Below are positions 1 through 35,124 of a stretch of 35,124 nt of DNA, piece after piece. How positions within the stretch are numbered: the stretch's first letter is position 1; the number at the start of each line of letters is the position of its first letter. The DNA comes from a virus. Lineage: Duplodnaviria; Heunggongvirae; Uroviricota; Caudoviricetes. The translations under genes were made by a program, and so were the position numbers. The stretch is from IMG/VR virus record IMGVR_UViG_2690316269_000012. One strand, 5' to 3'. The notes beneath the pieces were generated by a model, which was not told the DNA's origin, searched no databases, and saw only the letters and a program-made list of their open reading frames with translations.

Positions 1-1002
1 TTACCCTCTATTGTCAAAAGGGTTCAATTCAACAGCAGCCTCTAAATGACCTGGAGCAAAATGCGCATAACGCATAGTCATTTTTATATCGCTATGCCCC
101 AGTATTTTTTGCAACACAAGAATATTTCCGCCCCGCATCATAAAATGACTGGCAAACGTGTGACGTAGCACATGAGTTAATTGCCCATCAGGAAGCTCGA
201 TCTTCGCTCTCTTAATTGCAGCGTCAAAAGCCTCATAACATGGTGAAAATAGCGCTCCTCGTTTTTGAGGAAGCATAGCCTGCAATTGAGGTGAAATCGG
301 TACAGTGCGGTTCTTCTTTCCTTTAGTTTTAACAAATGTGATTCGACCGGGCAGTACTTGAGATTGCTTTAATCCTTCAGCTTCACTCCACCGAGCACCA
401 GTCGCAAGCCCAATACGGACAACAACCCCCAAATCTTTATTCCGTGACTCATCACACGCAATCAGAAGGCGTTCAATCTCATCTACATACAGAAACGCCA
501 GTTCCTTTTCTTCCTCACGAAACTTGCGAATACCAGTCAGGGGGTTTTCACCAGACCACTCCCCAAGGCGCTTCAGTTCGGCAAAAACAGCATGTAGATA
601 TGACTGCTCGCGATTAACGGTTGCTTCACTAAGTTTTTTCTTCCCCTTGGGATTCCATTCTCCTGATAGCCTTCTTTCCCGATAAGTAGCAAACATATTT
701 TTGTCAAACTGAGAAGCAAATGGATCCCCCAGCCTGGAACAAATCGCCTCAAGTTTGACTTTGCGCTCTGCACCAGAGGACAAGGTTTTACCGTACATCT
801 CAAACCAACGAGCAATCAACTCAGAAAGACGAGGACCAGAACCATCTTGAAACTCGTCTCCAACTCTACTATTCATTAAACGGCGCTCATAAGAGAGCGC
901 CTCACTTTTTGTCGCAAACTGTTTACGAATGCGTTTTCCCGATGCCCCGTAGGGATAACATTCGCAAAGCCATTTACCTGATGGAATCTTACGAACCGAC
1001 AT
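1..1002 (-). CDS. int: tyrosine site-specific integrase (P2-type)
   Basis: 333-aa ORF with C-terminal tyrosine-recombinase motifs (GARWSEA, HVLRHTFASHF, LGHSDIKMTMRYAHF); terminal gene of the repressor-led minus-strand operon, as in P2. Confidence 0.93.
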   Translation of the reverse strand: MSVRKIPSGKWLCECYPYGASGKRIRKQFATKSEALSYERRLMNSRVGDEFQDGSGPRLSELIARWFEMYGKTLSSGAERKVKLEAICSRLGDPFASQFDKNMFATYRERRLSGEWNPKGKKKLSEATVNREQSYLHAVFAELKRLGEWSGENPLTGIRKFREEEKELAFLYVDEIERLLIACDESRNKDLGVVVRIGLATGARWSEAEGLKQSQVLPGRITFVKTKGKKNRTVPISPQLQAMLPQKRGALFSPCYEAFDAAIKRAKIELPDGQLTHVLRHTFASHFMMRGGNILVLQKILGHSDIKMTMRYAHFAPGHLEAAVELNPFDNRG

Positions 1003-2050: not shown

Positions 2051-2455
2051 TCACCTACCCTTAGTTTCGTTATAGTCACGACCAGCGATACGGTTATTAC
2101 CACCAGAAATATTTAACTCACGTCCTGATGGCTGAGTTTCCTTTTCACTGATCGCACCTTTTAAAGCCCCGATCACCGCGTTTTTCACATCTAACGAAGC
2201 TGCTCGAAAGCGAGTAATCAACTCCTGCTCATCATCGTTATAAGTTTCAGGTGAGTGAATTCCCAACACAACATACTGAACATCAAGGCCAAAACGAGAC
2301 AGCGCTGCCAAATACGCAGCATCAGGAAAGCTATCTCCTTTCTCATATCTAAGCTGAGTTAGCTTTTTGACTCCACCAATGTCGCTCATGGCAACTTGAC
2401 TAAGTCCCAATCTTTCCCTTTCCTCACGCAACCGCTGACCAATATCATTTTTCAT
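2051..2455 (-). CDS. C: immunity repressor, HTH XRE-family (P2 C-like)
   Basis: 134-aa ORF; N-terminal Cro/C1-type helix-turn-helix (QRLREERERLGLSQVAMSDIGGVKKLTQLRYEKG); divergent from the early operon. Confidence 0.85.
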   Translation of the reverse strand: MKNDIGQRLREERERLGLSQVAMSDIGGVKKLTQLRYEKGDSFPDAAYLAALSRFGLDVQYVVLGIHSPETYNDDEQELITRFRAASLDVKNAVIGALKGAISEKETQPSGRELNISGGNNRIAGRDYNETKGR

Positions 2456-2464
2456 ACAAAAACC

Positions 2465-2493
2465 TTGACAGGTATCTTTTTTGATACCAAAAT
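2465..2493 (+). promoter_or_regulatory. candidate early promoter (TTGACA-N17-CAAAAT) with operator-like dyad GGTATC-N6-GATACC (2471..2488) in the spacer
   Basis: -35 consensus hexamer at 2465..2470; perfect 6-bp inverted repeat between -35 and -10; sits in the 75-bp gap between divergent repressor and early genes. Confidence 0.45.
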
Positions 2494-4985: not shown

Positions 4986-7822
4986 GTGCGTTTGCATGGA
5001 GCTGGAATGAACCACGGCCAGCCATTGATCCGGCCAGATTTACGGAGCGCAGGCAGGAAACTGAAACCGACCTGCAACGCGCCATCCGTTACTACCTTGA
5101 GGCAAACAAAAGGGCACAGGAAGAACAGGAAGCGAAGGAAGAAGCCTTTTTCGCACAATCCACCGTGGGTAAAAAACTCATGGCATCCCTTGAGGAAGCC
5201 GGACAGCGTGAAAAGCTGGCACAAAGCATCATCAGCAAGCGTCAGGCAACAGAACAAGACCCGGTGGCCCGTGCTTTTGCCACACTGAAGGTGCTTCCCG
5301 TTTATCTGCGTGAACCTCTGAGCCGCCACCTCTCTTTTCTGCGCAAGAAGCAGGAAGCCGATCGTCAGAAAGGCAAAAAGAGCTGGCAGGCTGAACGCTA
5401 CGCGCGCGGAACCCTGCGCAAAATATTCGAACGTCTGGACCGCACCGACAGCCGCTGGCTGACACCGGGCTATCGCTCCCTTGCCGGACGCGAACGCCTG
5501 GACGATTTGCTTTACCTGCCGCAGCTCAACAAACACCAGATACAGACGCTGGCCACCATGACGGCGGCGATGTTCAGTGGCACTTTTGAAAAACTCTGCG
5601 ATGGCTTTGGCGCGACCGATGGCGAGCTGACCATGGATGTAACGCTGAAGGCGTATCAGATGCTGGCCCGCATGGCGTTACACCTGCACGCTATGCCTCC
5701 ACATTATGACGCTCTGACAACAGACAAAGACCGGAGGAATGAACCGGACACGGAGCTGCTGCCGGGCGCAATCCTTCGCCTGACCTGTGCGGAATGGTGG
5801 AAACGCAAACTGTGGCTGTTACGTTGCGAGTGGAGAGAAGAACAACTCCGCGCCGCCTGTCTGGTTTCCAGAAAAACATCACCCTATCTGAGCCAGGACG
5901 CGTTAAGCGAGTTTCGCGCACAGCGCGAGAAAACACGCGATTTCCTGAAAAGTTTCATGCTGGAAAACGAAGACGGGTTCACGATTGATCTCGAGACAGT
6001 GTATTACGCGGGAGTAAGTAACCCGATTCACCGTAAGGCAGAAATGATGGCCACCATGAAGGGGCTGGAACTTCTGGCCGAAGCCCGTGGCGACAGAGCG
6101 GTGTTTCTGACTGTCACCTGCCCGTCAAAATACCACGCCACAACAGAGAACGGTCATCCGAATCCCAAATGGAACGGGGCCACCATGCGCGACTCCAGCG
6201 ATTACCTGGTTAACACGTTTTTTGCGGCGGTCCGCAAGAAACTGAACCGCGACGGCCTGCGCTGGTATGGCATCCGCACGGTGGAGCCTCACCATGACGG
6301 CACCGTGCACTGGCATATGATGGTCTTTGCTCATCCGGAAGAAATCGACACCATTGTGTCCCACACCCGCGATATTGCCATTCAGGAAGACCGCCACGAG
6401 CTGGGCAATGATATTACTCCGCGCTTTAAGGTGGAGTATGTCGACGGCTCAAAAGGCACGCCAACCAGCTACATCGCCACCTACATCGGAAAGAACCTGG
6501 ACAGCCGCGCCGTGGATGGCATCGACCCGAAAACGGGCAAGCCACGCGTTGACCACGAAACCGGAAAATCAATGGCCGAGAGCGTGGAACGCGCCATCGG
6601 CTGGGCACGCCTTCACCGGGTCCGCCAGTTCCAGTTCTTTGGCATCCCCTCCCGTCAGGTATGGCGTGAACTCCGCCGCCTTGCCAGCCAGATGGCACGC
6701 AACCCGGAAGGCCCACAACGGCTGAAGGATGATGCAATGGATGCGGTACTCGCTGCCGCTGATGCCGGATGTTTTGCCACCTACATTGAAAAACAGGGTG
6801 GCGTACTTGTTCCGCGCAAGGACTACCTGATTCGCACAGCCTACGACCTCGCAGATGAGCTGAACGATTACGGCGAACAGAGTGTACAGATTTACGGGAT
6901 CTGGTCGCCATTCATCGGGGAATCCTCCCGTGTGTGCACGCATCCGGATAACTGGAAGCTGGTAAGACGTAAACCGGAAGCGGAAGACAGCGCCCGCGAA
7001 AATGGTTTTGACCTTCAGGGCGGCCCTGCCGCCCCTTGGACTCGTGGCAATAACTGTCCCCGTGTACAGGAAACAGGCAACAACGGGACAGAACAGCCGG
7101 AAGAACGGCCAGCACCGTGGCCGCAGCTTCCTGACGGCGTTGAAGTAAATGAATGGATGCGCTCACTGAAACGGCACGAACGCCGGGCGCTGATGCGTTC
7201 GCTTCGTGACAAACAGGCAAAAAACAGCAGCGATGAAATGCAGAACTGGACACAGAGCCGCAAACAGCAGCGGCCTTTGCCTGATAACCACGAGTTACTC
7301 GCTAAAGAATGGCGGGAGTCTGCTGAATCTCTCGGCCTGCATATCGGTGAACAACAGATGCAGCACCTGTTACGGGGCGGCAGTCTGTACGTTGACGGCA
7401 GCATCATTGCACCGCAGGGATTTGAAATTGTACGCAAACCGGATACCCGCCCGGACAGCCGAATCACGCAGCTCTGGCAGCGTCTGAGCCGTAATCATGG
7501 CGTAAGCAGCACGGAGATCCGCCATAACCCGGTCGCCAGCTATCTGGCACAGCTGGGGGCATCAGACCCTGAAGCCGCCGCACGCCTGGCATCCACACTT
7601 CAGCAGGACCAGAACACCATGAAAACACCCGTTACCGTGCTTTCTGACATGCTGCGCGCCATCCGCGACGCAGAGCACGCACAGAGAATCAGTGAAACCA
7701 CTGAACGCGCCAGCCGCAAAGCAGACCTGCTGCGGGGTGGCCTGACCAGTGGAAACAAAAAACAGACAGAAACGGGACTCACGAATCCCGTAAATGAGCA
7801 AAAAACGCGCAGCGATATATGA
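4982..7822 (+). CDS. A: rolling-circle replication initiator endonuclease (P2 gpA family)
   Basis: 946 aa from ATG at 4982; HUH-type motif (GTVHWHMMVF) and overall resemblance to P2 gene A product; longer than P2 A (about 761 aa) with a C-terminal extension. Confidence 0.88.
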   Translation: MSAFAWSWNEPRPAIDPARFTERRQETETDLQRAIRYYLEANKRAQEEQEAKEEAFFAQSTVGKKLMASLEEAGQREKLAQSIISKRQATEQDPVARAFATLKVLPVYLREPLSRHLSFLRKKQEADRQKGKKSWQAERYARGTLRKIFERLDRTDSRWLTPGYRSLAGRERLDDLLYLPQLNKHQIQTLATMTAAMFSGTFEKLCDGFGATDGELTMDVTLKAYQMLARMALHLHAMPPHYDALTTDKDRRNEPDTELLPGAILRLTCAEWWKRKLWLLRCEWREEQLRAACLVSRKTSPYLSQDALSEFRAQREKTRDFLKSFMLENEDGFTIDLETVYYAGVSNPIHRKAEMMATMKGLELLAEARGDRAVFLTVTCPSKYHATTENGHPNPKWNGATMRDSSDYLVNTFFAAVRKKLNRDGLRWYGIRTVEPHHDGTVHWHMMVFAHPEEIDTIVSHTRDIAIQEDRHELGNDITPRFKVEYVDGSKGTPTSYIATYIGKNLDSRAVDGIDPKTGKPRVDHETGKSMAESVERAIGWARLHRVRQFQFFGIPSRQVWRELRRLASQMARNPEGPQRLKDDAMDAVLAAADAGCFATYIEKQGGVLVPRKDYLIRTAYDLADELNDYGEQSVQIYGIWSPFIGESSRVCTHPDNWKLVRRKPEAEDSARENGFDLQGGPAAPWTRGNNCPRVQETGNNGTEQPEERPAPWPQLPDGVEVNEWMRSLKRHERRALMRSLRDKQAKNSSDEMQNWTQSRKQQRPLPDNHELLAKEWRESAESLGLHIGEQQMQHLLRGGSLYVDGSIIAPQGFEIVRKPDTRPDSRITQLWQRLSRNHGVSSTEIRHNPVASYLAQLGASDPEAAARLASTLQQDQNTMKTPVTVLSDMLRAIRDAEHAQRISETTERASRKADLLRGGLTSGNKKQTETGLTNPVNEQKTRSDI

Positions 7823-7869
7823 AGCGCGCACAAAACAGGCAAAAACGGGATTTCAGAATCCCGTAAACG
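7769..7869. repeat. two copies of a dyad-containing repeat, AAACGGGA-N-TCCCGTAAA (7769..7796 and 7843..7869)
   Basis: Copy 1 is inside the 3' end of A, copy 2 in the A-parM spacer; each holds a 6-8 bp inverted repeat; flanked by CAAAAAAC-like A-tracts. Confidence 0.5.
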
Positions 7870-7898
7870 ATTAATTAATCAACATAAGGAAAACCGAC

Positions 7899-8858
7899 AT
7901 GAAAATTTACATCGACGACGGCTCCACCAACATCAAGCTGGCATGGACTGAGAACGGCGAACGCCGCAACGCCATCAGCCCGAACAGCTTCAAGTCGGAA
8001 TGGTCTGCGCCGTTCGGTGGCTCGCAGCCTGCTAACTACATGCTTGATGGCGTGCGCTATGGTTTTGATCCGGTCAGCGATCGCTTTGTCCAGACGACCG
8101 ACACGCAATACCAGTACAGCGATGTGAATGTCATTGCCATTCATCACGCGCTGGTCAAATCAGACATCACGCCACAGGAAGTGGATGTGGTTGTTACCCT
8201 GCCACTGAGCGAATATTTCGACACAAACGCACAGCCGGACATGGCCAACATCAACCGCAAAAAAGCGAACGTCATGCGCCCGGTGGAGTACCAGAACGGC
8301 GAAGCATTCACTATCCGTAACGTACGGGTTATGCCTGAATCCATTCCGGCTGGCTTTAAAGCACTGGCTGACATGAGTCCGTTTGAATCCCTGCTGATTG
8401 TGGATTTGGGCGGAACCACGCTGGATGTGGCAAAGGTTCAGGGGCAACTGGCAGGTATCAGCCAGGTGTTTTGCGATCCACACGTAGGCGTTTCTCTTAT
8501 GGCCGATGCCGTACTGTCGGTGATGGCCACTAACGGTATGCGCACCAGTCACCACATCGCCAATACCATTATCGAACATCGCCATAATGAAGCCTGGCTG
8601 CGCCAGCACATCCACAATGACGCGCATTACGCCAGCCTGATGGCGGTTATTCGTGAAAAGGAAGAAACACTGAAACAACGCGTGATCCGCGCGCTGGCGG
8701 TTTTTTCGGGTTACGGGCGGGTGATGGTTGTCGGTGGCGGGGCGGAGATTGTGGCACCCGCTATCCGCGAAGCCTGCGGAGTTAATGCGACTTTCATCGC
8801 GGACGGGGTGCCACAGTTTGCTCTGGTTAATGGGCTGTACGCAATGGACAAGGAGTAA
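7899..8858 (+). CDS. parM: actin-like segregation ATPase ParM/StbA
   Basis: 319 aa; N-terminus MKIYIDDGSTNIKLAW and later blocks (YSDVNVIAIHHAL, VMPESIPAG, LIVDLGGTTLD, VVGGGAEI) match plasmid R1 ParM closely from memory. Confidence 0.88.
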   Translation: MKIYIDDGSTNIKLAWTENGERRNAISPNSFKSEWSAPFGGSQPANYMLDGVRYGFDPVSDRFVQTTDTQYQYSDVNVIAIHHALVKSDITPQEVDVVVTLPLSEYFDTNAQPDMANINRKKANVMRPVEYQNGEAFTIRNVRVMPESIPAGFKALADMSPFESLLIVDLGGTTLDVAKVQGQLAGISQVFCDPHVGVSLMADAVLSVMATNGMRTSHHIANTIIEHRHNEAWLRQHIHNDAHYASLMAVIREKEETLKQRVIRALAVFSGYGRVMVVGGGAEIVAPAIREACGVNATFIADGVPQFALVNGLYAMDKE

Positions 8859-8862
8859 ACCA

Positions 8863-9174
8863 ATGACGACACCAACCAGACGGATAAGTTTCTATCTGAA
8901 GCCCGCCGCCGTCAAGAACGAAGGAGAAGCATGCGCCTGGCTGGACAGCCTTACACCAGAAGCCCGCAAAAGCGGCCAACGCGTGGCTTTTCTGGCCGGG
9001 CTGGCACTTCTGAAGACGAATCCGGCAGAGGCTTACCGACTGGCCGCATGGGCTGATGATGAGATGTTACCTGTGACACAAATCAGCTCAAAAAAGTTTG
9101 AAGCACAGTCTGCACCAGTGGCTAAGATAACCAGCCAGATGGCTGGGAATATCCGGGCGTTATTTCCTGAGTAA
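8863..9174 (+). CDS. parR: ParR-like centromere-binding adaptor
   Basis: 104 aa from ATG at 8863; ISFYLKP...LDSLTPEARKSGQRVAFLAGLAL and C-terminal IRALFPE resemble R1 ParR; directly follows parM. Confidence 0.8.
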   Translation: MTTPTRRISFYLKPAAVKNEGEACAWLDSLTPEARKSGQRVAFLAGLALLKTNPAEAYRLAAWADDEMLPVTQISSKKFEAQSAPVAKITSQMAGNIRALFPE

Positions 9175-9302
9175 AAGCATCTGCGCGAAAAATGCTCACG
9201 TTTATAGAGACAGTATCATTCCATTTGGCACACTTACTTCAATAATCGATCTGTTAAACAAATAGATTGTCTATTATCTATCGATTAAAACGATCAATTA
9301 TC

Positions 9303-9331
9303 TTGACAGTAATGTGCCTTTTTGTAAGATC
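9303..9331 (+). promoter_or_regulatory. candidate promoter (TTGACA, about 16-nt spacer, TAAGAT)
   Basis: Consensus -35 at 9303..9308 in the AT-rich gap after parR; would give a long leader for the 9539..9808 ORF. Confidence 0.3.
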
Positions 9332-9372
9332 GTTCGCATTGTGAGCGACAAGATAATTGCGCGGCATTGTCC

Positions 9373-9471
9373 ATGCAAAACGCCCCAATAGCAGCAACTA
9401 TTGGGGCGTAAAACTCGGTCGGACTCACTTAACCTGATATGCGTGCCTTCCGAAGTAAATCAAAATGTGCG
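9373..9471 (-). ncRNA. candidate small RNA of about 100 nt, antisense to the leader of the 9539..9808 ORF
   Basis: Minus-strand promoter TTTACA-N17-TAAAAT (complement of 9478..9506) and an intrinsic terminator on the minus strand (11-bp GC-rich stem 9381..9391/9398..9408 followed by UUUUG); no ORF in the interval. Confidence 0.3.
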
Positions 9472-9538
9472 TCGTATATTTTATTGCTTACACGCACCTC
9501 TGTAAAGGCACGCATATTTTTCCTATGAGGTAAATAAA

Positions 9539-9808
9539 GTGCGGGCTAAAACAGGTATTTGCAAGAACCCTCATCGTTATAATCCAACATTTCTGTCTCT
9601 CCCTGAATATCAAGGACAAGAAGGTCGGCACAAATGCGCTGCCTGTGCTTTTGAGCTAGGCATAAAAGATGCGCTTGAAGGACGCGCTATGGCTCAGAAT
9701 GATTTAGTTTTAGCTAACATTCCGTTTAGCCAGGCTGGAACTGTAAGGCACAGAGATGCCTATGAAGCATATGTTCGTGGTTGGCGATTAATAAACAGCA
9801 ACAATTGA
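9539..9808 (+). CDS. small Cys/His-rich protein of unknown function
   Basis: 89 aa, GTG start with GAGG RBS; C8-x3-H12 and H31-x-C33-x2-C36 spacing suggests a zinc knuckle; own terminator downstream. Confidence 0.5.
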   Translation: MRAKTGICKNPHRYNPTFLSLPEYQGQEGRHKCAACAFELGIKDALEGRAMAQNDLVLANIPFSQAGTVRHRDAYEAYVRGWRLINSNN

Positions 9809-9816
9809 TACTTTTG

Positions 9817-9843
9817 AAGCGCCGATAAGGCGCTTTTTTTGTT
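9817..9843 (+). terminator. rho-independent terminator
   Basis: 7-bp stem AAGCGCC/GGCGCTT with GATAA loop followed by a T-run of 7, nine nt after the ORF stop. Confidence 0.65.
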
Positions 9844-24520: not shown

Positions 24521-25098
24521 TGACATTCAGAATGAGTGAACACTCACGGACCATAAAAATTTATAATCTACTGACCGGAACCAATGAGTTTATTGGTGAA
24601 GGTGATGCATACATTCCACCTCATACAGGTCTGCCTGCAAACAGTACCGATATTGCCCCGCCAGATATTCCGGCTGGCTTCGTGGCCGTTTTCAACAGTG
24701 ATGAGGCATCGTGGCATCTCGTTGAAGACCATCGGGGTAAAACGGTTTATGACGTGGCATCAGGGGACTCGTTATTTATTTCTGAACTCGGTCCATTACC
24801 GGAAAATGTTACCTGGTTGTCGCCGTATGGAGAGTATCAGAAGTGGAACGGCACATCCTGGGTGAAAGATGCAGAAGCAGAAAAACTGTTTCGGATAAGG
24901 GAGGCGGAAGAAACAAAAAACAGCCTGATGCAGGTAGCCAGCGAGCATATTGCGCCACTTCAGGATGCCGTAGATTTGGATATTGCAACGGAGGAAGAGG
25001 CATCGTTACTGGCTGCATGGAAGACATACCGGGTATTGTTGAATCGTGTTAATACAGCGGTAGCAGCGGATGTTGAGTGGCCAGTCGCCCCACAATAA
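24520..25098 (+). CDS. G: tail fibre assembly chaperone G
   Basis: 192 aa; ATGA overlap with H; position. Confidence 0.8.
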
Positions 25099-31446: not shown

Positions 31447-31603
31447 AGCTTCAGCCCCTTGTATCCGTTAAATGATTCGGCAACAATCATCACCCACCAC
31501 GCGCGTAATCTCACCCCTGCGCCGTTCTCCCGCCACGGCGACAACAAAAAGCAGTAACCCCCTATGCACGCACATGCGACCATGCCGCACAGGGAGGGAA
31601 CAG

Positions 31604-32704
31604 ATGACCGATACCACCATGCAATTGCTCAGTCAGAGCACAGACCCCGTGAAAATGCCGGATTTTGATATTCTCGCGGAGGGGGAAACACTGTCCGGCG
31701 TGGCAGAGCGCCTGATGAGCCTGTCACTGACCGACAACCGGGGATTTGAAGCGGACCTGCTCACCATCACGCTGGATGATGCGGATGGTCAGTTGCAGCT
31801 ACCGCCACGGGGCGCGCGCCTGACGGTTCTCATTGGCTGGAAAGGAGAACCGCTGACAGAAAAAGGCACTTACATTGTTGATGAAATCGCTCACGAAGGA
31901 CCGCCGGACAGGCTGACTGTTTCAGCCAGAAGCGCAGATTTTCGGGATGAATTTAACGTTAAACGTGAGGTGTCCTGGCATGATGTGACCGTTGAGCGCG
32001 TGGTATCCGCCATCGCTCATCGGTACGGTCTGAAACCACAAATCAGCGAAATGCTGATGGATATTGAAATCGACCACGCCGACCAGACCGAAGAAAGCGA
32101 CATGTCCTTCCTTACGCGCATGGCGGAAATGCTGGGCGCAATCACTACGGTAAAAAGCAGTAATCTGTTATTCATCATGCCAGGCGGTGGCGTGAACGCA
32201 CAGGGCCAGCCGTTGCCATCGTTCGCCATCACGCGCAGCAGTGGCGATCGCCATCAGTTCCGCATTGCTGACCGCGAAGCGTATACGGGGGTACGTGCTT
32301 ACTGGCTTGATCTTAATTACGGGAAAAAGAAAAAAGTCAGCGTGAAACGCCGCAAACCGAAAAAGGAGAAAAGCAGCAGCCGTGAAGGTGACTATATGGA
32401 AGGTGCGGAAGGCAACGTGTTTGTGTTACGCAAGACTTATCAGAACGAGCAGGCAGCAAGACGTGCAGCGGCGGCAAAGTGGCAGCAGCTACAACGCGGA
32501 GCCGCATCATTCTCCATCACGCTGGCGCGTGGACGCGCAGAACTCTATCCCGAAATGCATGGCACGGTGACAGGCTTCAAAAGTGACATCGATAATCAGG
32601 ACTGGATTATTGCAAAAGCCGAGCACACCATTGATAACAGCGGCTTTACCACACAGCTTGAGCTTGAAGCAAAAATCCCGGAATGGATAGCAGAAACAGA
32701 ATGA
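31604..32704 (+). CDS. D: tail protein D (late gene D)
   Basis: 366 aa from ATG at 31604 with AGGGAGGG RBS; size and position as P2 D. Confidence 0.85.
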   Translation: MTDTTMQLLSQSTDPVKMPDFDILAEGETLSGVAERLMSLSLTDNRGFEADLLTITLDDADGQLQLPPRGARLTVLIGWKGEPLTEKGTYIVDEIAHEGPPDRLTVSARSADFRDEFNVKREVSWHDVTVERVVSAIAHRYGLKPQISEMLMDIEIDHADQTEESDMSFLTRMAEMLGAITTVKSSNLLFIMPGGGVNAQGQPLPSFAITRSSGDRHQFRIADREAYTGVRAYWLDLNYGKKKKVSVKRRKPKKEKSSSREGDYMEGAEGNVFVLRKTYQNEQAARRAAAAKWQQLQRGAASFSITLARGRAELYPEMHGTVTGFKSDIDNQDWIIAKAEHTIDNSGFTTQLELEAKIPEWIAETE

Positions 32705-33103: not shown

Positions 33104-34243
33104 GTGGGAAACAATAAAGTGAAATTAGGAAGAAATGATAAGTGCTGGTGTAATTCAGGACTTAAGTATAAAAAGTGCCATCTTGGTCGAGATCGTGAAA
33201 CTCCGGTATCCAAAGCCGAGGCACTGAAATTTTCAAAGTCTCTCTCGCAGAGAAAGGCATGTTATGCGCCAGCATCCATGCACGAAGATTGTGATAAACG
33301 CATCGTTCAGGCGCATACGATATCTAAGAGCAGTAGCCTTAAGGCGATCGCCGACTCCAGCAATCACGTCATGGGGGTGATAATGAACTTAGCAAGCCTG
33401 ATGAGAAACAACGGAAAATGGCTTCCCGAGAAGATCGGTATCAATCAGGCATCCACTTTTACAGGATTTTGTGCAGTTCATGACAGAATCTTATTTTCAT
33501 GCCTAGAGAACGAAAAATTTACAGGCACGGACGAGCAGTGCTTTGCCTTAATGTTTCGTTCATTGTCTAAAGAAATTTATGCCAAAGAAGGGGGAGTGCT
33601 ATCTTCTGATTTTGCTAAAAATGCCGATAAAGGAAAGCTACAAGTTGAACAGTATTATATTCAGAAATTAATCGACCAGCACCAAAGTGGCTTAAATGCA
33701 GCAATAATTGAATTAAATAATCTTAAAACTAGCCTCGACCGCATCCTACTTAGCAGGCAATTTTCAGAAATTGAAAGTGTTATCTTCACTTTTGCAGAGC
33801 CTTTACCAATTGTAGTTTCGTCAATTCTTTCACCGGAGAGGGATTTCGATGGGACCAAAATTCAGGATTTGAGCGATCTTACAGTGTCGGCGGAACAAGT
33901 ATGTTTCAATGCTTTTTCCTGCGGAGGTAAGGGATATGTAGTGTTCAGTTGGCTGAGAACTTCAACAATTATCAGACGTTTTATACGGACACTAATTAAG
34001 ATCCCAGCTAACAGGATGTTCAATACCCTTCTGTATTTTTTCTTCACAAAGGCCGAAAATACATATTCATCCCCTGAGTGGTGGGACAGGCTCAGTGATA
34101 AACAGCGAGAGAATATCGGCAACATGATTATGTCAGGGGTTGAATTTTTTGGCATACCTACATCACAGGTTGATCATTCCGTTGATTATAACGCCGCTGC
34201 ACTTGAAGAGATAACATGCAGCAACAACGAAATTTGCAGCTGA
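33104..34243 (+). CDS. SEC-C-motif protein with uncharacterised C-terminal domain (cargo)
   Basis: 379 aa (GTG at 33104, or in-frame GTG at 33119); N-terminal LGRNDKCWCNSGLKYKKCH matches the SecA-type SEC-C zinc motif; remainder unrecognised; AT-rich island between D and ogr. Confidence 0.6.
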   Translation: MGNNKVKLGRNDKCWCNSGLKYKKCHLGRDRETPVSKAEALKFSKSLSQRKACYAPASMHEDCDKRIVQAHTISKSSSLKAIADSSNHVMGVIMNLASLMRNNGKWLPEKIGINQASTFTGFCAVHDRILFSCLENEKFTGTDEQCFALMFRSLSKEIYAKEGGVLSSDFAKNADKGKLQVEQYYIQKLIDQHQSGLNAAIIELNNLKTSLDRILLSRQFSEIESVIFTFAEPLPIVVSSILSPERDFDGTKIQDLSDLTVSAEQVCFNAFSCGGKGYVVFSWLRTSTIIRRFIRTLIKIPANRMFNTLLYFFFTKAENTYSSPEWWDRLSDKQRENIGNMIMSGVEFFGIPTSQVDHSVDYNAAALEEITCSNNEICS

Positions 34244-34532: not shown

Positions 34533-34793
34533 ATGTTCCGTTGTCCGCTTTGTGGCGCATCTGCCCGAATCCGCACCAGTCGTCCGGAAAACGATTCAAA
34601 CACTGTGCGGCAAAAGTATTACCAGTGTAACAACCTGGAATGCGGCGTATGCTTCTCAACACTGGAAGCTTTCCATAAATTCACATCAAAACACGCCTCC
34701 GGCGTTCACTCTTCGGAAGGTATCCCGTGGCATGAGCTGCCAGCTTCACACAGGGGAAACAATCAGATGAGTTTGCCTTTACCTCAGAATTAA
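34533..34793 (+). CDS. ogr: zinc-finger late-gene transcriptional activator (Ogr/Delta family)
   Basis: 86 aa; MFRCPLCGASARIRTSR...YYQCNNLECG matches the Ogr C2-C2 zinc-finger pattern. Confidence 0.88.
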   Translation: MFRCPLCGASARIRTSRPENDSNTVRQKYYQCNNLECGVCFSTLEAFHKFTSKHASGVHSSEGIPWHELPASHRGNNQMSLPLPQN

Positions 34794-34983: not shown

Positions 34984-35124
34984 ATGTCGCAAAAATCGCT
35001 TACAGCCATCACGTTCTGCGTGACGGTAATCCTCATCATCTGGATGCTACACGGTTCGCTGTGTGAAATACGGATGAGCTTCTGGGGAGCGGAGTTTGCG
35101 GCGTTCTTACAGTGTAAGCAGTAA
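34984..35124 (+). CDS. Hok/Gef-family type I toxin-like small membrane protein
   Basis: 46 aa; N-terminal TM helix then SLCEIR...AEFAAFLQCK, matching the Hok-family signature; stop codon is the last three bases of the window. Confidence 0.5.
   Translation: MSQKSLTAITFCVTVILIIWMLHGSLCEIRMSFWGAEFAAFLQCKQ

Follow-up and report, generated by a model that had tools for sequence, protein, structure and literature searches.

The 35,124-nucleotide (nt) viral DNA IMGVR_UViG_2690316269_000012 from IMG/VR, hereafter called the window over its whole length, holds an integrating P2-family prophage of the P88 type (genus Xuanwuvirus), and directly downstream of its replication gene gpA it carries the two genes parM and parR (parMR). 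The encoded proteins fall within the R1 family as defined and, judged by sequence, parMR is a genuine type II DNA-segregation module with a candidate centromere. We found that parMR belongs to the core genome of the P88-like lineage and is not variable cargo, and that the data speak more for a role during the extrachromosomal replication of the phage than for stable episomal lysogeny. The reading that we retain, with a probability of about 0.45, is that parMR moves the excised, gpA-replicated phage circles. A first-pass annotation of this DNA had proposed a type II ParM/ParR pair between 7755 and 9174, in an integrating P2-like phage and preceded by repeats suited to a centromere. All of these parts were recovered, with matches to the R1 family:

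5000-7822, plus strand: gpA, rolling-circle replication endonuclease (Pfam Phage_GPA, 1e-129), the upstream neighbour of parM
7756-7797: candidate centromere block 1, a 42-nt repeat with a palindrome at 7772-7791 (ACGGGACTCACGAATCCCGT), inside the last 22 codons of gpA
7829-7870: candidate centromere block 2, a 42-nt repeat with a palindrome at 7845-7864 (ACGGGATTTCAGAATCCCGT), 35 nt upstream of the parM ATG
7899-8858, plus strand: parM, actin-fold ATPase of the R1 ParM family, 319 amino acids (aa), by Pfam and structure matches
8863-9174, plus strand: parR, ParR/StbB-type adaptor, 103 aa, with its ATG at 8863, by Pfam and profile matches

The gpA start was taken from the RefSeq annotation of the L001 prophage; across the matched stretch, 7600-9400, this prophage and the window do not differ.

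The ParM protein matched the Pfam domain StbA_N (1e-80) and the ParM C-terminal domain (3e-68), and aligned end to end with the R1 ParM structures 1mwk and 4a62 (E=8e-92, residues 1-316, about 50% identity). In the sequence alignment with three plasmid ParMs, no substitution was seen in the nucleotide-binding motifs DDGSTNIK, PES, DxGGTTLD and GGGA, including residues D6, D7, G8, S9, T10, N11, K13, E147, D169, G171, G172, T173, T174 and G279-A282, and the motifs were also visible in the alignment with R1 ParM. An AAGGA Shine-Dalgarno sequence was located 8 nt upstream of the parM ATG. The gene was intact in 11 of 11 independent copies and in 80 of 80 IMG/VR viral contigs, and it is under strong purifying selection, the median pairwise omega (dN/dS) of the independent copies being 0.07. 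At the protein level ParM (96.5-100% identity) was more conserved than gpA (88-98%).

The parR gene starts 5 nt past the parM stop codon and was intact in all 74 IMG/VR copies, with a product of 103-104 aa. The protein matched Pfam Plasmid_stab_B (1e-23, residues 6-71) and phrog_2515 (2e-59), and a ParR profile that included the plasmid ParRs matched the crystal structure of pB171 ParR (2jd3, E=2e-11). Residues 1-65, in the ribbon-helix-helix region and including the predicted DNA-reading strand RRISFYLKP, were near-invariant. The linker was hypervariable and mosaic, with several types and with recombinants such as that of locus L016, and the C-terminal motif N-I-[RQ]-x-[LF]-F-P was kept in 74/74 prophage ParRs. 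In a MAFFT alignment with plasmid ParRs, the tail NIRALFPE coincided with the last residues of R1-like StbB (ETKKNAMKLIN) and with the tails of the IncK and IncL/M ParRs (NIKNLFPDDD), with N96 and L100 invariant. The R1 ParR tail is the peptide or helix that docks into ParM in PDB 4a62. A prophage ParR devoid of a ParM-binding tail, in which NIRALFPE would correspond to the internal NILRSLFPK of R1 ParR, was rejected because of this C-terminal placement.

The similarity of ParR to plasmid ParRs, at 25-28% identity, was detectable at the profile level only, and tblastn against plasmids returned prophage copies and no plasmid ParR. The strong resemblance to R1 that had been claimed for both proteins is therefore borne out for ParM and overstated for ParR. 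The plasmid ParMs themselves shared 46-52% identity with the prophage ParM. Because none of them exceeds 52% and no plasmid ParR was returned by tblastn, the module is, as far as its divergence indicates, an old and distinct branch and not a recent capture. A scan of genome contigs for distant prophage-type ParRs gave three loci. The ParR of locus L015 (GCA_008711365.1, VXJO01000004.1), considered as the most divergent ParR with an apparent identity of 42%, was rejected, since this value results from a compensated double frameshift in a decaying prophage; in that prophage gpA is split by frameshifts, an insertion sequence element (rve, HTH_Tnp_1) lies directly after parR, and parM is intact with 97.8% identity.

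The position of the two genes in related phages was then compared. A megablast search with 7600-9400 returned 14 phage records at 94-98% identity, among them P88, 520873, 503458, PhiR44_2, P884B11, Citrobacter PhiSM and Chuche, and matched E. coli chromosomes at 100%. The prophage of strain WS3294A, for instance, adjoins pdxB and encodes integrase, repressor, Cox, gpA, portal, terminase and tail genes. A search of related prophages for parMR at this locus, as the first-pass annotation had suggested, located the module directly after gpA in all 14 Xuanwuvirus phage records, and in 69 of the 74 IMG/VR loci gpA ended less than 120 nt before parM. Near-full-length parM was present in 1279 complete E. 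coli genomes (24% of 5426), compared to 1320 with this gpA type. Xuanwuvirus phages carrying parMR include some reported as induced or as producers of infective virions (P88, PhiSM). Among 50,697 phage records, R1-type ParM was found in Xuanwuvirus and in the phage-plasmid D6 only, the latter with 47% identity. Some genomes, such as those of porcine enterotoxigenic E. coli, carry 3-5 P88-like places, with near-identical parM and palindromes in one cell. An assembly labelled Vagococcus sp. WN89Y also holds this E. coli-type prophage (L012), which is probably a contamination.

The GC content of parMR (0.51-0.58) was like that of gpA and the backbone, and it fell to 0.39-0.44 right after parR. 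The interval from parR to the portal gene (Q) varied from 993 to 4176 nt, with gene content differing between phages, so that the variable low-GC cargo begins after parR. PADLOC gave no matches for ParM, ParR or the neighbouring 89-aa gene, and a defence-system identity for parMR was rejected on this ground. The location of parMR in the A-to-Q interval was thus correctly read, whereas its description as variable cargo at the place of tin/old was not. The module is fixed after gpA in the lineage, has backbone GC and no PADLOC match, and no promoter of its own was detected, which is not the profile of variable cargo or of a defence island.

The expression of parMR was approached through two further features at the left of the window:

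2051-2455, minus strand: helix-turn-helix (HTH) repressor gene, divergent from the Pe-type promoter-like site
2465-2493, plus strand: Pe-type promoter-like site, TTGACA-17-CAAAAT, 10 of 12 matches, beside the divergent repressor gene

The parM gene lies on the strand of gpA, starts 76 nt after it and has a strong Shine-Dalgarno sequence. No sigma-70 consensus match was found on the plus strand of 7500-9300 with a crude scan that weak promoters would escape. From 2465-2493 to parR, the plus-strand consensus scan showed no convincing terminator and one weak promoter-like site only. We infer that 2465-2493 is the start of an early operon running through gpA into parMR. Since parMR is on the same strand as gpA, with a Shine-Dalgarno sequence and with no strong promoter or convincing terminator between, it is probably the distal end of this early/replication operon.

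The two 42-nt direct repeats are 81% identical and 73 bp apart from start to start, and each holds one 20-bp palindrome, ACGGGA-N8-TCCCGT. This pattern occurs at these two places only in the window, with 0.03 occurrences expected by chance. Its core, GGGAyT/AATCC, was conserved in 76 of 78 IMG/VR loci, the loop and the outermost arm bases being variable, and the spacing between blocks was 73 bp in 73 of 76 loci. In IncL/M and R1-like plasmids, the repeat blocks that precede parM exhibit a spacing of 72-73 bp. The two blocks are the predicted ParR-binding sites. In R1, parC consists of two sets of five direct 11-bp iterons upstream of parM. No such iteron array was found upstream of the prophage parM, where there are only two 42-nt blocks of one palindrome each. 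Hidden 11-bp sub-iterons within the blocks, which by eye could be drawn as 5+5 units, were rejected, as the lag-11 autocorrelation of the block region was not above that of shuffled sequences (z about 1, compared to 4.1 for an R1-like parC).

Two loci with altered blocks were observed. In L049 (IMG/VR 2657245439_000011; one of the 78 loci) a 73-bp deletion, apparently produced by recombination between the direct repeats, merges both blocks into one hybrid, with loss of the end of gpA, parM and parR remaining intact. In L090 (IMG/VR 2547132279_000014) ACGGGA is replaced by ACAGGA in both palindromes, a concerted change that suggests gene conversion between the blocks. A co-variation of ParR with the palindromes was rejected, the DNA-reading strand of ParR being unchanged in L090, which has the same G-to-A change in both palindromes.

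From these elements the following sequence of events can be proposed for the replicative phase. The early lytic operon would run from the Pe-like promoter through cox and gpA to parM and parR as its last genes, so that the two proteins would be silent in the repressed lysogen and would be made alongside the rolling-circle replicase while the genome is an extrachromosomal circle, after infection or excision. ParR dimers would recognise the two palindromic blocks, one on each side of the gpA stop codon, by means of their invariant N-terminal ribbon-helix-helix strand, RRISFYLKP, and the ParR tail, N-I-x-x-L-F-P, would capture the ends of ParM-ATP filaments. Growing filaments may then push sister circles apart and spread the monomeric circles made by gpA through the cell, and both daughters would inherit circles if division precedes integration or lysis. 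The presumed gain would be a better replication and packaging and a lower loss of the element. Such a role would parallel those of AlpAC in CGP3 and of srpMRC in R391, described below.

Several points weigh against this proposal. It is not obvious how a pushing spindle of the low-copy-plasmid kind would benefit a phage that produces many copies per lytic cycle, and P2, 186 and other P2-like phages manage without parMR. There are two palindromic sites only, with no 11-bp periodicity, compared to 10 or more iterons in characterised ParR centromeres, and the partition complex may be atypical or located elsewhere. Both palindromes also look like intrinsic terminators on the minus strand. Finally, block 2 may contain a weak or ParR-regulated promoter, as the promoter scan is a crude consensus test. 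Monomeric circles are the packaging substrate in P2-type phages. The most specific form of the proposal, which we regard as tentative and somewhat doubtful, is that P88-like phages use a ParM spindle in their replication cycle, with ParM filaments separating and positioning the monomeric rolling-circle products of gpA, and with ParR nucleating on a minimal centromere of two palindromes, which overlaps the replicase gene at its end.

Among the alternatives, facultative plasmid lysogeny survives best. It supposes that ParMRC, together with post-segregational killing by hok/gef, keeps the phage over many generations in the form of a low-copy circular plasmid instead of an integrated prophage, an idea of plasmid maintenance stated by Rousset et al. 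2022 (PMC9122126). Three features at the edges of the window are concerned:

1-1002, minus strand: integrase, intact
34533-34793: ogr (Ogr_Delta, 5e-14)
34984-35124, plus strand: Hok/Gef open reading frame (ORF), 46 aa (Pfam, 3.7e-7), just past ogr

The hok-like gene at the right edge had been noticed in the first annotation, and its Pfam match confirms it; it is a gene of the phage, since its equivalent is listed in the genome record of P88 as 'MokW-like host killing; hok/gef family'. No sok-like RNA was detected at the Rfam gathering threshold, nor any RNA family in the parMR region. The phage thus owns a hok/gef gene, and a ParM of this family also serves the phage-plasmid D6. One complete-genome assembly (NZ_CP148288.1) presents a whole P88-like phage as a circular 'plasmid' of 34,461 bp. 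The phage records CP025923 and CP025874 are named by E. coli strain numbers and have accessions among E. coli genome records, and another strain has a chromosomal copy with 100% identity over the 6.8 kb compared. However, parM was located at 1441 chromosomal and 2 plasmid places in the 5426 complete E. coli genomes, the other PLSDB matches were prophages within replicons of 0.2-1.4 Mb, and a circular contig is explicable by spontaneous induction. Integrase, repressor and Cox are intact, and the consensus scan detected no promoter active under repression. The sole replicase is the rolling-circle HUH endonuclease of the lytic operon, acting in cis, and not a copy-controlled plasmid replicon; its cis-action and its role in the lytic operon are known in part from established P2 biology. 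Where a phage-plasmid would show extrachromosomal upkeep and plasmid-type replication, we found 1441 against 2 places, an integrase and a Phage_GPA replicase, and we consider plasmid lysogeny unlikely.

A second alternative accepts parM and parR as real and takes the palindromes as transcription or RNA elements, the true ParR site being elsewhere or missing. They would be tandem intrinsic terminators that block minus-strand read-through from the cargo or late region into gpA, or else hairpins in mRNA. Indeed, both palindromes read on the minus strand as an 8-bp stem with a U-rich tract behind it, both were picked by the terminator scan, their hairpin energies range from -9 to -12.7 kcal/mol, and the block region is devoid of the iteron periodicity of the R1 parC. 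On the other hand, no minus-strand gene ends at the palindromes, and terminators of the cargo would be expected right of parR, not 1.3 kb beyond. The substitutions in the arms gave no consistent G-U pattern, those of block 1 fitting the minus strand and those of block 2 the plus strand; an RNA-hairpin covariation was rejected, as this G-U pairing on opposite strands leaves no strand-specific signal. The conservation of the inner core with a loop free to vary is as for a protein-bound palindrome, and the site upstream of parM and the 73-bp spacing agree with plasmid parC layouts. A purely transcriptional or RNA role of the palindromes is thus distinctly improbable.

According to a third alternative, parMR acts in the lysogen, for example in incompatibility with or exclusion of incoming plasmids or related phages that have a similar ParR/parC, or in positioning of the integrated locus, which would make it defence- or fitness-type cargo of the gpA-gpQ hotspot. 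The module does lie in the interval in which Rousset et al. 2022 (PMC9122126) describe a hotspot with many anti-phage systems, the PhiSM paper lists it as a 'fitness' gene, by annotation only, and ParR shows a mosaic, hypervariable linker and tail as well as recombinants. Such a role is nevertheless very unlikely, as there are no PADLOC matches and no parMR promoter was detected, the genes have backbone GC and are a fixed part of the lineage, unlike the cargo beside them, which is exchanged, the ParR DNA-reading strand and the palindromes are invariant, which excludes a diversification of specificity, and plasmid ParRs share 25-28% identity with parC sites made of unrelated T/A-rich iterons, so that cross-reaction is unlikely.

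The other features of the prophage were as follows. The gpA protein has 940 aa, its Phage_GPA domain ends near ORF residue 520, and the long C-terminal extension, whose final codons double as candidate centromere block 1, gave no Pfam match. The low-GC cargo unit directly after parR covers 9175-9840 and contains:

9303-9330: promoter-like site of the cargo gene
9539-9808: cargo gene, 89 aa, phrog_3941 (unknown function), with no Pfam match
9816-9836, plus strand: terminator of the cargo gene, from the terminator scan

A perfect hairpin with 12-bp arms (9380-9409) is located between this promoter-like site and the 89-aa gene. Two minus-strand genes lie between the integrase and HTH repressor genes, 1008-1355 (DUF2511, phrog_2950) and 1385-2035 (phrog_5825, with weak similarity to membrane proteins). 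Both are missing from the L001 prophage, where the repressor gene directly follows the integrase gene, and 1008-2035 looks like a second variable cargo site. A plus-strand gene at 33104-34243, between the gpD-like gene (31472-32704) and ogr, encodes a 379-aa protein whose N-terminus holds a SEC-C motif (Pfam, 2e-8) and is probably further accessory cargo. A full-length match to Rfam IS009 (RF02111, 192 bits) was found at 24863-25061 on the plus strand, within the tail-fibre and tail-fibre-assembly region.

The parMR module is already annotated and discussed in print, and is not new. The annotation pipeline PGAP names the products 'plasmid segregation protein ParM' and 'plasmid partitioning/stability family protein', PHROGs families exist for both, and Rousset et al. 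2022 (PMC9122126) reported, for about a quarter of P2-like phages, a putative partition system through which they might be maintained as plasmids. Our literature searches found no functional study of the P88/Xuanwuvirus parMR. What is added here is the core status of the module in its lineage, the candidate centromere of two palindromes instead of iterons, the short ParR with a conserved tail, and the operon-based argument for a role on replicative circles.

This actin-type module, intact and strongly conserved inside an integrating phage, occurs in about 24% of complete E. coli genomes. If it serves replicative circles, the precedents of CGP3 and R391 described below would extend to a very common enterobacterial phage family, and 'plasmid' partition systems would be general tools for transiently extrachromosomal elements; if it supports plasmid lysogeny, the P88-like phages would constitute facultative phage-plasmids that have been overlooked as a class. 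A ParM spindle, if true, would be the first case of a small temperate coliphage with a cytoskeletal system for genome positioning, together with a natural minimal variant of a type II centromere. The surprise would be moderate rather than high, and the functional question is testable with the existing inducible phages P88 and PhiSM.

Compared to the ParMRC systems of R1/R100 (StbA/StbB, with IncF, IncK/I and IncL/M relatives), the P88-type module has a full-length ParM homologue, 46-52% identical and with all nucleotide-binding motifs, a ParR of the same Pfam family with the C-terminal N-x-x-x-L tail motif, the same order of repeats, parM and parR, and two repeat blocks about 73 bp apart. It resides on an integrating phage and not on plasmids, its ParR is shorter (103 aa compared to 117-147 aa for the plasmid proteins, with 25-28% identity), and its candidate centromere has two palindromic blocks instead of the 2x5 direct 11-bp iterons of R1. 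In the R1 family a ParR-autoregulated promoter is embedded in parC; the crude consensus scan, which weak promoters would escape, made none evident within this candidate centromere.

The first-pass annotation regarded a partition system as unexpected in an integrating element, which two precedents contradict. In the Corynebacterium glutamicum prophage CGP3, the actin-like ATPase AlpC and the adaptor AlpA, which binds sites upstream of its own operon, are induced early after excision, and efficient replication of the phage DNA depends on them (Donovan et al. 2015; PMC4446434). The CGP3 AlpA/AlpC/alpS system and parMR thus both combine an actin-like ATPase and a DNA-binding adaptor in an integrated prophage. 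AlpC belongs to a distant actin-like family in a Gram-positive host, and its function was experimentally shown while the P88-type module is known from sequence. In the same way, srpMRC of R391 stabilises the excised integrative and conjugative element (ICE), the replication of which depends on the relaxase TraI and oriT, as demonstrated by plasmid and ICE stabilisation assays and by SrpR-srpC binding (Carraro et al. 2015; PMC4489591). The SXT/R391 srpMRC is likewise a type II partition system in a normally integrated element with an HUH-type replication enzyme (TraI there), and it works beside the toxin-antitoxin hipAB as the P88-type phage has hok/gef; it differs in that its carrier is an ICE and not a phage, and in being only distantly related to R1 ParMR.

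The P1-like phage-plasmid D6 is, as the window element, a tailed E. coli phage with a ParM of this family. The 91-kb D6 prophage is obligatorily a plasmid and replicates as one, whereas the window element encodes an integrase and a rolling-circle gpA and is located almost exclusively on chromosomes.

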